A stretch of DNA of 2,771 nt from positions 1 to 2,771 of the IMG/VR virus record IMGVR_UViG_2548876700_000022; one strand, written 5' to 3'. Below are positions 1-2,771 of the stretch, piece after piece. The translations under genes and the position numbers were made by a program. Position 1 is the first letter of the stretch. Each line of letters opens with the position of its first letter. The DNA is from a virus. Taxonomy: Duplodnaviria > Heunggongvirae > Uroviricota > Caudoviricetes. The notes under the pieces are model-generated. The model was not told the DNA's origin, ran no database searches, and saw only the letters and a program-made list of their open reading frames with translations.

Positions 1-267
1 ATGCGCAGAAAAGAGTCAAACGTTAGCAGTTTGCTGGAACTCACCAATTTTGAGGTAAGCTATTCTCTGGTTACCAATGAAGTTTACTTGTCTGCATCCT
101 TCACTGATAACATGGCCTGTATACCAAACTGGCCCTTACAAGAATTTCCGGATCAACTAATATGCATTTCTCGAGCAAAAGCTGTTGCCCTAATCGAAGA
201 GCTCCAGAAGACCATCAACTATATGGATGCAGGAATAGATCGAAGTTCAGGTAGCCTTCTCCAGTAG
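1..267 (+). CDS. hypothetical protein; possibly the 3' portion of a longer ORF entering from upstream of the window
   Basis: Open frame from window position 1 to TAG at 265-267 (88 codons). Same strand as, and 58 bp upstream of, the 326-973 gene, so it may be co-transcribed. Moderately AT-rich. No recognisable motif. The ATG at position 1 may be coincidental, since the frame may continue upstream. Confidence 0.35.
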   Translation: MRRKESNVSSLLELTNFEVSYSLVTNEVYLSASFTDNMACIPNWPLQEFPDQLICISRAKAVALIEELQKTINYMDAGIDRSSGSLLQ

Positions 268-325
268 CTGACGAGTTTTATAATAATTTGATATATATAT
301 CGTTCAATATTAGCGAGTACTTATA

Positions 326-973
326 ATGAGTGAATTTAGTAATCTTTTAAATAGCATACCTGGATGGTTATCCTCCTCCCTCACAGCTCTAGTTGGTACT
401 CTTATTGGCGGATGGTTTACCCTAAAAGGAGTGACCCAACAAGCTAAGCTGTCTAAAGTAGAGACAGAAAGAGAATCCCTTGAATTACAACTTTCAGTAT
501 TAAAAGGAGTTAAGGGAGAAGTTTTCACCCTAATCAATTTATATAATAAAAGGATGAAAACACACATTGATAATATAAAACCGGGACAAATGTTGATTCT
601 CACATTCCCTGTAGGGGATGATAATTTCACATTCTATGAGCAAAATGCGAATGTCATTGCAAAACTAAATGATTCTGCTAGAGACTCAATAATTAACATA
701 TACACATATTCACGCTCATTAATACAATCATTTAAAGGAAACAACAAACTCATTGAGGATTATGAAAAAATCCTTATTGGCATGGCAGACAATAACAAAG
801 ATAAAACCATGTATAAGAGATTACATGATGCAAAAATAAATGTAATGGTAGATTATGCTCAAGGGATAAAAAATATTGATGCAGAGCTAAGAGATGCAGT
901 CAATAAGGGATTCGACATTATCGACCAAGAAGTAAAGTCACTACAAATGAAATTAAACAAATTAGCTTCATAG
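326..973 (+). CDS. hypothetical membrane-anchored protein (single N-terminal TM helix plus helical/coiled-coil region); AT-rich cargo gene and candidate phage-exclusion/defence effector
   Basis: 648-nt ORF with ATG at 326 and TAG at 971-973. Residues about 11-33 (IPGWLSSSLTALVGTLIGGWFTL) form a hydrophobic helix. The rest is hydrophilic and rich in K/E/D/N with heptad-like spacing. The gene is very AT-rich and uses rare ATA/AAA/AAT codons, contrasting with the adjacent invertase. Weak SD-like GAGT about 8 nt upstream. Function is unknown from sequence alone. Confidence 0.7.
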   Translation: MSEFSNLLNSIPGWLSSSLTALVGTLIGGWFTLKGVTQQAKLSKVETERESLELQLSVLKGVKGEVFTLINLYNKRMKTHIDNIKPGQMLILTFPVGDDNFTFYEQNANVIAKLNDSARDSIINIYTYSRSLIQSFKGNNKLIEDYEKILIGMADNNKDKTMYKRLHDAKINVMVDYAQGIKNIDAELRDAVNKGFDIIDQEVKSLQMKLNKLAS

Positions 974-1022
974 AATGCTCCACTCCCTGTTCAATATTTT
1001 TACAAGCTTATCAGCCAACCGC

Positions 1023-1053: not shown

Positions 1054-1608
1054 TCATTTATCTCCGACCGGAAACTTCTTATACAGTGTCGATATACCAA
1101 CATCATAGATGATCGCCACCTTCTGGCGAGGAACGCCTGATGCAATTAATCGTCCGGCCTGCTCCCATTGTTCTGGTGTAAGTTTGGGGCGACGTCCACC
1201 AATTCGTCCCTGTGCGCGAGCTGCTTCCAGTCCAGCTTTTGTTCGTTCAACAATCAGTTCACGCTCCATTTCAGCCAGGGCACCCATCACATGAAAGAAA
1301 AAGCGCCCCATTGGGGTACTGGTATCAATTGAATCCGTCAGACTACGAAAGTTGATGCCTCGTTCGCGCAACTCCTCCACCAGCACGACAAGATGCCGCA
1401 TACTGCGCCCCAGTCGGTCCAGTTTCCAGACCACCAGCGTGTCACCTGCCGATAATGTCCTGAGCAGCTTTTTCAGTCCTGGTCTGTCGGACTTTGTACC
1501 GCTTATCTTGTCTTCAAAAATCAGCTCACATCCTGCACAGTTCAGCGCATTACGTTGTAGATCGGTATTCTGGTCATTTGTTGATACACGTACATAGCCA
1601 ATAAGCAT
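1054..1608 (-). CDS. pin: serine recombinase, Gin/Pin/Cin/Hin-family DNA invertase
   Basis: Translation MLIGYVRVSTNDQNTDLQRNAL...DTLVVWKLDRLGRS...MGRFFFHVMGALAEMERELIVERT...GRIGGRRPKLT...IYDVGISTLYKKF has the hallmark small serine recombinase catalytic domain (Ser9 in YVRVST, codon at 1582-1584) and a C-terminal HTH. At 184 aa it matches the family size. I place the start at the ATG at 1606-1608 (MLIGY), preceded by a GGGGA SD-like sequence, rather than the ORF-track ATG at 1642-1644. The 12-codon extension MASFLLLPGEFN has no SD and is absent from family members as I recall them. The pin symbol is from memory of e14 Pin and is not verified. Confidence 0.93.
   Translation of the reverse strand: MLIGYVRVSTNDQNTDLQRNALNCAGCELIFEDKISGTKSDRPGLKKLLRTLSAGDTLVVWKLDRLGRSMRHLVVLVEELRERGINFRSLTDSIDTSTPMGRFFFHVMGALAEMERELIVERTKAGLEAARAQGRIGGRRPKLTPEQWEQAGRLIASGVPRQKVAIIYDVGISTLYKKFPVGDK
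1515..1590. promoter_or_regulatory. putative Fis-dependent recombinational enhancer embedded in the 5' coding region of the invertase gene
   Basis: In the Hin, Gin and Cin systems the Fis-bound enhancer lies within the first roughly 100 bp of the invertase coding sequence. The corresponding region here encodes VSTNDQNTDLQRNALNCAGCEL. Exact Fis sites are not determinable by eye, so the bounds are approximate. Confidence 0.35.
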
Positions 1609-1634: not shown

Positions 1635-2033
1635 ATGATGCCATTTGCTTGTTATTTCTTCATTTTCATAAACGTTGGTTTGGGAGAAGCGGCGAAAAGG
1701 GATGTGGGCACAGGAGATAATCAGATACCGGATATGGGAGCATTCGCTTCTGGTTCGGGATGGTTCAGGCTACCAGGTGGATATATTGTTCAGTTTGGCA
1801 CTTTTGCAGGAAACACGACCCGCTTTATCAGTGGACACTTCCCTATACCATTCCCTAATCAGCCGATGGTTTCAGTCAGTGTTATGTCTGATGCCGTTCA
1901 GTCAGACCCGTCGATTCCTGCCCCGCAGGTTTTGTCTGTAAATTTTGAACATATCAGTAATTCAGCGTGGCGTGTGGCAACCAGTGATATCTCACAGCAA
2001 TACAGATTCAGTTATATTTCGATAGGACGGTAG
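1635..2033 (+). CDS. side tail fibre protein, variable C-terminal receptor-binding segment (Stf/S-variable part); gene segment without its own start
   Basis: Open frame ending at TAG 2031-2033, 2 bp before the tfa start codon, which is the typical coupled Stf-Tfa arrangement. The functional coding part most likely begins at the crossover site (about 1663-1677) and is fused to a constant N-terminal part only after inversion. The ATG at 1635 from the ORF track falls in the invertase promoter region and is probably not a real start. The sequence is Gly/Ser/Thr-rich (GAFASGSGWFRLPGGYIVQFGTFAGNTTRF), consistent with fibre-tip domains. Confidence 0.6.
   Translation: MMPFACYFFIFINVGLGEAAKRDVGTGDNQIPDMGAFASGSGWFRLPGGYIVQFGTFAGNTTRFISGHFPIPFPNQPMVSVSVMSDAVQSDPSIPAPQVLSVNFEHISNSAWRVATSDISQQYRFSYISIGR
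1663..1688. other. site-specific recombination crossover site (gix/pix/cix-like), left boundary of the invertible tail-fibre segment
   Basis: TTTTCATAAACG-TT-GGTTTGGGAGAA is a 12-2-12 imperfect inverted repeat, with 8 of 12 positions palindromic around a central TT. It contains the AAAC..GGTTT core typical of Gin-family crossover sites. It lies about 55 bp from the invertase start codon and inside the tail-fibre reading frame, where it encodes FINVGLGE, as is typical for Mu G, P1 C and e14 P segments. Confidence 0.65.
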
Positions 2034-2035
2034 AA

Positions 2036-2476
2036 ATGCAGAAATATATTTTCAGTGCCGATAAAAATGCGTTTTTCCCTGTGGAGCTTAAAATCGCTTA
2101 TCAGGAATCCGGCGAATGGCCCGATGATGGAATCGAAATTGACGACACTGTTGCTGCCGAATTTATGAAGGAAGCACCAGAAGGAAAATACAGAGGTGTC
2201 ATCGACGGAATGCCTGCATGGATTGATATTCCACCGCCAACTCATGAGGAACAAATTGCCGCAGCCGAACTGAAAAAGCAGCAATTGATTAATCAGGTCA
2301 ACGAATACATAAACAGTAAGCAATGGCCTGGTAAAGCGGCGATTGGTCGCCTGAAAGGTGAGGAACTGGTGCAATATAATTTGTGGCTGGATTATCTGGA
2401 CGCACTGGAGCTGATCGATACTTCCGGTGCGCCAGATATTGAATGGCCTACGCCTCCGGCAGTTCAGGCCAGATGA
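2036..2476 (+). CDS. tail fibre assembly protein (Tfa/U family chaperone)
   Basis: 146-aa ORF with an AGGA SD-like sequence 8 nt upstream of the ATG at 2036. It follows the fibre segment immediately. The C-terminus LWLDYLDALELIDTSGAPDIEWPTPP matches the conserved C-terminal motif of Tfa-type chaperones and resembles the C-terminus of the convergent ORF at 2448-2771. Confidence 0.85.
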   Translation: MQKYIFSADKNAFFPVELKIAYQESGEWPDDGIEIDDTVAAEFMKEAPEGKYRGVIDGMPAWIDIPPPTHEEQIAAAELKKQQLINQVNEYINSKQWPGKAAIGRLKGEELVQYNLWLDYLDALELIDTSGAPDIEWPTPPAVQAR

Positions 2477-2771
2477 CGTCCGGCGCTGTGCTGGTATCTG
2501 TTGCCGTCACCGCGTCAATATAATCCAGCACAGCGTTAAGTCGGGTGTTTTCTGGCTGCGTCAGCTTCCGCCCGGCCTGTAATTTCAGTTGAATCAGACT
2601 GATGGAAGCCATTGCAGCATCAATCAGCGACTGGCGCTTTACTTCTGCCGCGTCTAGTGCGGCGCTATGCTGTGCCTCGGTATCCGTCACCCATTTCTCA
2701 CCATCCCATTTATCGTATGGCGTTAATGGGGCGATAGTGGTTGTATTTTCAGGGTAATCACCCGGAACTGT
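2448..2771 (-). CDS. alternative tail fibre assembly protein (Tfa'/U' family), partial; 5' end lies beyond the window
   Basis: The - strand frame is open from the window edge (2771) to the stop at 2448-2450. The translation ...YDKWDGEKWVTDTEAQHSAALDAAEVKRQSLIDAAMASISLIQLKLQAGRKLTQPENTRLNAVLDYIDAVTATDTSTAPDVIWPELPEA has the typical Tfa N-terminal DGEKWV motif and the shared C-terminal LDYIDA...TS.APD..WP motif. The ORF-track start at 2690 is a GTG and is internal; the true start is upstream of the window. Confidence 0.8.
   Translation of the reverse strand, partial: TVPGDYPENTTTIAPLTPYDKWDGEKWVTDTEAQHSAALDAAEVKRQSLIDAAMASISLIQLKLQAGRKLTQPENTRLNAVLDYIDAVTATDTSTAPDVIWPELPEA

Follow-up and report, generated by a model that had tools for sequence, protein, structure and literature searches.

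An AT-rich gene under purifying selection beside a DNA invertase gene

The window analysed here is the whole 2771-nt stretch of viral DNA at positions 1 to 2771 of IMG/VR record IMGVR_UViG_2548876700_000022. Its main subject is ORF215, an intact open reading frame (ORF) that starts with ATG at window position 326 and ends at 973 on the + strand, encoding a 215-amino-acid (aa) protein with a predicted membrane anchor. The product is identical to WP_001288820.1 and 100% identical to that of the gene in locus L001, one of the genomic loci compared. In the host prophage the gene order, read from the chromosomal gene yfhH, is ORF88, ORF215 and then pin, a DNA invertase gene that is convergent toward ORF215. 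The features of the window are collected in Table 1.

The GC content of ORF215 is 0.333, against 0.494 for the neighbouring pin gene and 0.46-0.54 for the tail-fibre genes, and at third codon positions (GC3) it is 0.288 against 0.454 for pin. The 58-bp spacer upstream of the gene (268-325) is only 24% GC. An initial annotation, made from the letters of the sequence, had described the gene as more AT-rich than its flanks and as using rare codons such as ATA; both points were confirmed (33% GC versus 49% for pin), the codon count being 7 ATA, 4 AGA and 6 CTA. Pairwise comparison of E. coli alleles gave dN/dS values (the ratio of non-synonymous to synonymous substitution rates) of 0.06-0.09, and comparison with the Dickeya, Enterobacter and Klebsiella orthologues gave 0.09-0.16. 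ORF215 is under purifying selection and, given these low ratios, it is a functional gene rather than a chance ORF in AT-rich DNA.

No significant match to the protein was obtained in Pfam, NCBIfam, PHROGs, PADLOC or the sequences of the PDB, the last searched both with the single protein and with the family profile, in agreement with the initial annotation, which could assign none of its motifs to a known family. In E. coli O55:H7 and some other strains only a 139-142-aa product is annotated, starting at Met77; the matching DNA in these strains is 2 bp longer than the query, which suggests that these copies are frameshifted and have lost the transmembrane (TM) helix.

Table 1. Features of the 2771-nt window, with the evidence for each
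Feature	Position	Strand	Evidence
ORF88, terminal gene at the prophage end; conserved left flank of the cargo slot	1..267	+	phrog_17793, E 2e-43
Cassette leader, 43 bp; left exchange breakpoint ~282/283	283..325	+	blastn breakpoint versus L054; composition
ORF215, coding sequence of a predicted membrane-anchored helical-bundle protein	326..973	+	identity to WP_001288820.1; dN/dS 0.06-0.16; AlphaFold2 pLDDT 83.8
Putative glycine-zipper TM helix, residues 14-33, WLSSSLTALVGTLIGGWFTL	365..424	+	hydropathy peak; conserved small residues; charge asymmetry
Predicted non-helical connector, residues 83-115, with the most conserved family motif FPVGDDNFTFYEQNA	572..670	+	alignment A1; DSSP of the model
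Trailing spacer; right exchange breakpoint ~1004-1017	974..1016	.	blastn breakpoints; PADLOC identities of alternative cargo
pin-type serine DNA invertase, conserved right flank of the slot	1054..1608	-	Pfam Resolvase, E 2e-51, and HTH_7
Promoterless tail-fibre C-terminal segment (Gp53-like_C)	1635-2033	+	
TTCTCCCAAACCAACGTTTATGAAAA, between pin and the 5' end of the partial tail-fibre ORF	1663-1688	-	
Tail-fibre assembly gene	2036-2476	+	
Second assembly gene, convergent, runs off the window	2448-2771	-	

A variable cargo slot at the end of a myovirus-type prophage

In strains with an identical or near-identical copy, ORF215 lies within an insertion between yfhH and yfhL, two genes that adjoin each other in K-12. 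This inserted DNA is a prophage of the myovirus type: it carries baseplate J/gp47 and DUF2612 genes together with a pin-type invertase and an invertible tail-fibre module, and its integrase is at the yfhL end. The initial annotation had assigned the window to an e14-like prophage. The integration site and the different baseplate genes rule out e14; the annotation was nevertheless right that K-12 e14 carries mcrA beyond pin. ORF215 is present in 80 of 5,426 complete E. coli genomes, compared with 331 that carry the baseplate module of this prophage lineage at full length, in support of the proposal that the gene is horizontally acquired cargo. In one prophage that has decayed to a remnant of ~5 kb, ORF215 is still intact.

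The boundaries of the cargo are sharp. Homology by blastn with a prophage at the same site in E. coli U1 (L054), which carries alternative cargo, spans window positions 1-282 and stops at 282; on the other side, breakpoints were found at 1017 (L011), 1004 (L013) and 1013 (L050). Since homology ends at 282 and resumes at 1004-1017, the exchangeable unit is ~720-735 bp and consists of ORF215 with a 43-bp leader and a 30-45-bp trailer. The cassette is a discrete insertion of deviant composition that is absent from otherwise related phages, and in these respects it is like a moron. A consensus scan found no sigma-70 site on the + strand upstream of the ORF215 start codon, leader included, and no terminator after the stop codon, the counts for both being not above those of shuffled controls.

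The slot is occupied differently from prophage to prophage. In U1 an unrelated 281-aa gene stands between ORF88 and pin. Beyond the right breakpoint other prophages carry PD-T4-3, Olokun or a ThsB-like pair, either instead of ORF215 or in addition to it. The matches to PD-T4-3 (full length, E 2e-140) and to the Olokun proteins OloA (E 4e-111) and OloB (E 3e-207) are strong. In E. coli KOr019 (L050 5088-6369), PDC-M50A (E 4e-26) and a ThsB-like TIR protein (E 8e-43) adjoin ORF215, inserted between it and a degraded pin gene with a breakpoint at ~1013 of the window, the same point at which PD-T4-3 and Olokun meet pin in other prophages. The occupants comprise ORF215, the 281-aa protein, PD-T4-3, OloAB, PDC-M50A with the ThsB-like protein and, in e14, McrA. 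Because these alternatives include known defence systems, the pin-adjacent slot is a genuine defence hotspot, and the variable cargo slot anticipated in the initial annotation is borne out by the comparison across prophages.

The U1 occupant is the hypothetical protein WP_001039127.1 (L054 4069-4914), which lies between ORF88 and a pin remnant and has no PADLOC match; it is a further candidate from this hotspot.

Predicted architecture of the ORF215 protein

Residues 14-33 form the sole hydrophobic segment of the protein (Kyte-Doolittle 1.35 in the window allele), consistent with the single N-terminal TM helix that had been predicted. A hydrophobic N-terminal helix is kept across the superfamily described below, and small residues occupy positions 20/21, 24/25, 28/29 and 35 in 77-100% of 77 of its members. 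Such a pattern corresponds to a glycine zipper, a motif linked to tight helix-helix packing. The mean number of lysine and arginine residues is 0.2 before the helix and 2.9 after it, and 63 of 65 members have more of them on the C-terminal side of the helix than on the N-terminal side; the median length of the N-terminal tail is 11 residues. From this charge asymmetry an N-out/C-in topology is predicted, so that the ORF215 protein would be a bitopic inner-membrane protein with a periplasmic N-terminus of ~13 residues and a cytoplasmic bundle of ~180 residues.

An AlphaFold2 model built from a 34-sequence alignment had a mean predicted local distance difference test score (pLDDT) of 83.8 and a predicted template modelling score (pTM) of 0.71, with confidence >90 for most of residues 50-215. 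The model is an up-down helical bundle. A single long helix (13-82) makes the TM segment continuous with the first helix of the bundle, a connector (83-115) is largely non-helical according to DSSP, and helices 116-154 and 160-214 follow. The connector holds the most conserved motif of the family, FPVGDDNFTFYEQNA. In alignment A1 the columns F94, G97, D99, N100, F101, F103, Y104, E105, N107 and A108 are invariant, and F101 and N107 are nearly invariant throughout the superfamily.

A large superfamily that moves as a single-gene cassette

Close relatives of the protein, all annotated 'hypothetical' and with no Pfam domain, occur throughout the Enterobacterales at 62-75% identity and with lengths of 215-223 aa. 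A profile search of 1.84 billion cluster representatives returned 663 clusters (at 50% identity) with E <= 0.001, 248 of them with E <= 1e-10, and nearly all are 190-220 aa. When 77 diverse members were compared with Pfam and PADLOC only scattered noise and nothing consistent was obtained, and the N-terminal extensions of longer relatives contained no domains. This superfamily is both large and uncharacterised.

In 19 independent contexts the family gene is solitary, with no recurrent neighbour and no conserved partner upstream or downstream, and no CRISPR or cas genes were seen among the neighbours. Its GC content is 0.33-0.37 in hosts of 0.38-0.59. The contexts themselves are varied. The gene occurs on a Dickeya integrative and conjugative element (ICE), near CcdAB and IS110, and next to HigBA on an Enterobacter islet. 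In Klebsiella it lies close to the integrase of small elements that encode a capsid, and SSU5-like phage-plasmids carry a relative at 31% identity. In a phage contig, a member at ~27% identity lies between the lysis and replication modules on the opposite strand. Other AT-rich genes adjoining family members encode a PifA-like KAP NTPase, PDC-S18, an HSDR_N protein and DUF3800. The family gene passes from one mobile element to another as a single-gene cassette that is complete in itself.

Two of the more distant settings are described here for their own sake. In the Citrobacter phage-plasmid pCAV1741-110 (L002 8864-9184) the gene after the 31%-identity member encodes a 106-aa protein that has a lipobox (LSGC). 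The two genes are on the opposite strand to their neighbours and resemble a short run of accessory genes related to the envelope. In a metagenome-assembled genome labelled 'uncultured Bartonella sp.' (L017; the label is unchecked), a 61%-identity member lies on a contig of 40% GC beside a full-length PDC-S18 (E 2e-140).

A possible membrane-acting effector and its relation to known systems

The best explanation of these observations, to which we give a probability of about 40%, is that the ORF215 protein is a stand-alone membrane-acting effector against phages or other mobile elements. Defence in a broader sense is slightly more probable, falling close to an even chance. A particular mechanism, in which a trigger leads to permeabilisation, is a more doubtful proposal than either. 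According to it, the cytoplasmic bundle, through its conserved residues including FPVGDDNFTFYEQNA, would sense a phage product or a change induced by infection; the glycine-zipper helices would then pack into an oligomer; and the oligomer would perturb the membrane, so that the infection is aborted or blocked. Membrane insertion, oligomerisation, sensing and a defence phenotype are all steps that we infer from the features described above.

This logic resembles that of Csx28 and of validated TM-plus-helical systems found with DefensePredictor, with no detectable homology to either. In Csx28 an N-terminal TM helix is joined to a four-helix bundle in the cytoplasm, and eight copies make up a pore, which depolarises the cell once Cas13b is activated (bioRxiv 10.1101/2021.11.02.466367). 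The likeness is one of architecture only, namely an N-terminal TM helix, a C-terminal cytoplasmic helical bundle, a length of ~200 aa and the predicted topology. The ORF215 protein, in contrast, is without the HEPN (Rx4-6H) motif and, among the matches listed, has no structural match to Csx28, and its gene lacks the association with cas13b, being solitary in the contexts surveyed. The feature that bears on an octameric pore like that of Csx28 is the conserved glycine-zipper face.

Small proteins with a TM helix and a helical part were validated by DeWeirdt, Mahoney and Laub (Science 2026; PMC13092281). They include DS-43 (221 aa, a single gene, flagged Csx28-like), DS-13 (183 aa + 233 aa) and DS-40 (311 aa). 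Like the ORF215 protein, these are small products of the E. coli accessory genome in which an N-terminal TM helix precedes a helical or coiled-coil region, and DS-43 is similar also in its length and in being encoded by a single gene. Comparison of profiles with hhalign aligned the Gly-rich TM helix of the DS-13A family (profile A4) with that of the diverse ORF215 family (profile A2) over 30 columns at a probability of 80%. However, only the TM helix aligned, and with the ORF215-family profile A1 the probability was 2%. An impression by eye that DS-13A shares an 'NFxFY' motif was rejected on the same ground. DS-13 (TMO1) is moreover a two-gene operon with a second TM protein, whereas ORF215 has no conserved partner, and the probabilities for DS-43 and DS-40 were 2.5% and 1.8%; for none of the three was homology of the soluble domain detected. 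Having no HEPN motif, no cas13b, no structural match among those listed and no match in the soluble domain, the ORF215 protein would at most work like the Csx28 and DS systems and is not a member of them.

McrA of e14, PD-T4-3 and Olokun occupy, like ORF215, the slot at the prophage end that adjoins the 3' end of a pin-type invertase gene. They are nucleases or large two-gene systems of known or validated defence function, whereas the ORF215 protein is small, predicted to be in the membrane and unrelated to them.

Elements of this kind, in which a prophage defence hotspot houses a small membrane protein, are familiar, and the literature already lists an allele of ORF215 as a defence gene that is predicted but unvalidated. 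If it proves defensive, a widespread and extremely compact family of single-gene membrane effectors would be added to the bacterial immune repertoire, and a TM helix joined to a helical bundle would offer a simple model of one protein that both senses and acts. A bolder version seems to us improbable, though worth stating. In it, ORF215 would be the first recognised member of a 663-cluster superfamily of autonomous single-gene membrane immune effectors, whose bundle senses infection directly and whose glycine zipper forms the pore. It would be a sensor-independent counterpart of Csx28, spread as a ~0.7 kb cassette on prophages, satellites, ICEs and phage-plasmids, and missed in the published screen through missing expression or an unsuitable phage panel. 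Whatever the function, the pin-adjacent hotspot, with exchange boundaries mapped at the base-pair level in a common E. coli prophage lineage, can be mined for more cargo such as the 281-aa alternative occupant.

Published phage challenge of a near-identical allele

No match to WP_001288820 was found in the main texts of the literature, and the relevant record came from a supplement, under the allele WP_001288814. This is the IAI1 allele, identical to the window protein at 211 of 215 positions (98%). In Table S6 of DeWeirdt, Mahoney and Laub (PMC13092281), WP_001288814.1 has the working name 'NADH' and no DS name, a DefensePredictor log-odds of 7.52, an HHblits log-odds of 3.08 and the category 'Structural defense homolog', and is scored defensive = FALSE. 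According to the same source, it was carried as pCV1-NADH in MG1655 and challenged with 24 diverse coliphages. The screen as a whole validated 42 of 94 candidates, and 3 of 8 in the structural-homolog class (PMC13092281). DS-43, DS-13 and DS-40, by contrast, were validated as defensive in the same screen.

Each candidate was cloned together with <=200 bp of the preceding and 100 bp of the following sequence, in a low-copy plasmid that lacks a promoter ahead of the insertion site (PMC13092281). Table S6 also has a 'pBAD' column, which reads TRUE for 'NADH' and for every 'DefensePredictor hits' row in the part of the table available, whereas the methods describe only three pBAD constructs and the strain list (Table S11) gives pCV1-NADH (PMC13092281). 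The label is probably misleading or shifted, and the strain table is followed here. The published negative is not decisive, because expression is not reported as checked in the available parts of the paper and no consensus promoter was detected in the 43-bp cassette leader or in the <=200 bp of upstream DNA that the clone carried. Since ORF88 ends only 58 bp upstream of ORF215, transcription may start beyond the cloned fragment; the promoter for the cargo slot may lie in ORF88, and the pCV1-NADH clone may have lacked one.

The initial annotation had suggested an anti-phage or exclusion effector. The hotspot context speaks for this proposal, and the lack of protection by a 98%-identical allele speaks against it, coming close to the outcome, no phenotype in phage challenge, that the annotation itself had named as contrary to its idea. 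With strong guilt by association and a high machine-learning score on one side and a negative wet-lab test on the other, the claim of defence should be kept as a hypothesis.

Alternative explanations

Several further observations weigh, like the published test, against a defensive effector. The predicted helical bundle has a generic fold, matched nearly as closely by proteins designed de novo. A tblastn search with three family members found no match in 50,697 cultured phage genomes. One distant member lies between housekeeping genes, in what appears to be a chromosomal setting with no mobile-element marker among the called neighbours.

The ORF215 protein might instead be a non-defence accessory protein, the product of a moron, tethered to the membrane and aiding the host or the element in another way, for example by modulating a host membrane or envelope function, in stress tolerance or when mobile elements compete, with the hotspot being simply a place where insertions are tolerated. 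The pin-adjacent slot also takes cargo of a non-defence type, an acyltransferase and a serine acetyltransferase, neither of which matches PADLOC, and in the Enterobacter cloacae complex the family gene holds a fixed chromosomal position, seen in hundreds of contigs. These observations, the negative phage challenge, the housekeeping setting of the distant member and the lack of similarity to known defence families in PADLOC are all consistent with this reading. Nevertheless, the sparse and patchy spread over many kinds of mobile element, beside toxin-antitoxin and defence genes, together with the high DefensePredictor score, is what conflict genes, and not physiological ones, typically show, and no domain indicates a metabolic or envelope function. 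We consider this reading rather unlikely, although it is the most serious of the rivals.

Superinfection exclusion of narrow spectrum is less probable again. Here the protein would be made constitutively in the inner membrane of the lysogen, its glycine-zipper helix would pack against a component needed by particular temperate phages, and entry of their genomes would be blocked with no cell death. The predicted single TM pass, with its conserved face for helix packing, would suit this role, as would the position at the prophage end, the usual site of genes expressed in the lysogen, where some strains have conversion genes of the acetyltransferase type alongside. Specificity for a few temperate phages would also explain the negative test, as the phages identifiable in the plating tables of that paper (the T-series, Bas, SECphi and lambda) were tested on K-12 and are for the most part virulent. 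Against it, only ~13 residues are predicted to be periplasmic and the large, most conserved part to be cytoplasmic, which fits intracellular sensing better than a block to entry; the family also resides on an ICE and on chromosomal islets, where no phage of the element itself would need protection; and Pfam and PHROGs gave no match to described families, exclusion proteins included.

The moron HK97 gp15, for which exclusion activity has reportedly been demonstrated, is similar in that it, too, is a single gene for a small membrane protein, inserted among conserved phage genes and distinct from them in composition. No sequence relationship between it and the ORF215 protein was found, and the ORF215 cassette is without a detected promoter or terminator consensus.

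A role in the phage life cycle at the membrane, as holin, antiholin, lysis-timing factor or prophage assembly factor, is very improbable. Glycine-zipper TM helices are characteristic of pinholins, and the ~27%-identity member on a phage contig does adjoin a lysis cassette, but on the opposite strand from the lysis genes, and in the contexts examined ORF215 itself is not in a lysis cassette. A protein of 215 aa with a soluble domain of ~180 aa is unlike known holins. The gene is missing from most prophages of its own lineage (80 versus 331 genomes), persists intact in a dead prophage remnant, is found on an ICE and on non-phage islets, and has no family match among the cultured phage genomes.

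Equally implausible is the reverse topology, in which a signal-anchor helix would hold a periplasmic bundle acting as a chemoreceptor-like four-helix ligand-binding or decoy domain, since the positive-inside signal contradicts it. The 4HB_MCP sensor domains (Tsr/Tar), TorS and DUF3829 share only 6-11% sequence identity with the protein and give no Pfam match (the DUF3829 model included), and the ORF215 protein, with its bundle predicted to be cytoplasmic, has neither the second TM helix that would enclose a 4HB_MCP-type periplasmic bundle nor a signalling module.

Flanking genes and the invertible tail-fibre module

ORF88 matches phrog_17793, a family of unknown function, over its full length of 88 aa. 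It is found in 125 E. coli genomes compared with 80 for ORF215, and thus occurs also without it, and the linkage of the two genes is confined to E. coli. At its yfhH end the prophage terminates with ORF88, and RefSeq records often omit this gene from their annotation. On the other side of the slot, the mechanical ORF call for pin (1054-1644, - strand, 196 aa) is probably 12 codons too long: the gene annotated as pinE in L001 is 555 bp, corresponding to window positions 1054-1608, and the Pfam resolvase domain begins at residue 14 of the long form.

The remainder of the window holds the tail-fibre segment and its two assembly genes. The element TTCTCCCAAACCAACGTTTATGAAAA presumably resembles the 26-bp crossover sites of Hin, Gin, Cin and Pin, with a central AAACC...GGTTT-like dyad; the search pattern was taken from the window itself, so that its exact match there is trivial. 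A single copy is present in the window, and its inverted partner must therefore lie beyond position 2771. Where the two assembly genes converge, an imperfect inverted repeat of 23 nt is found at 2484-2535.

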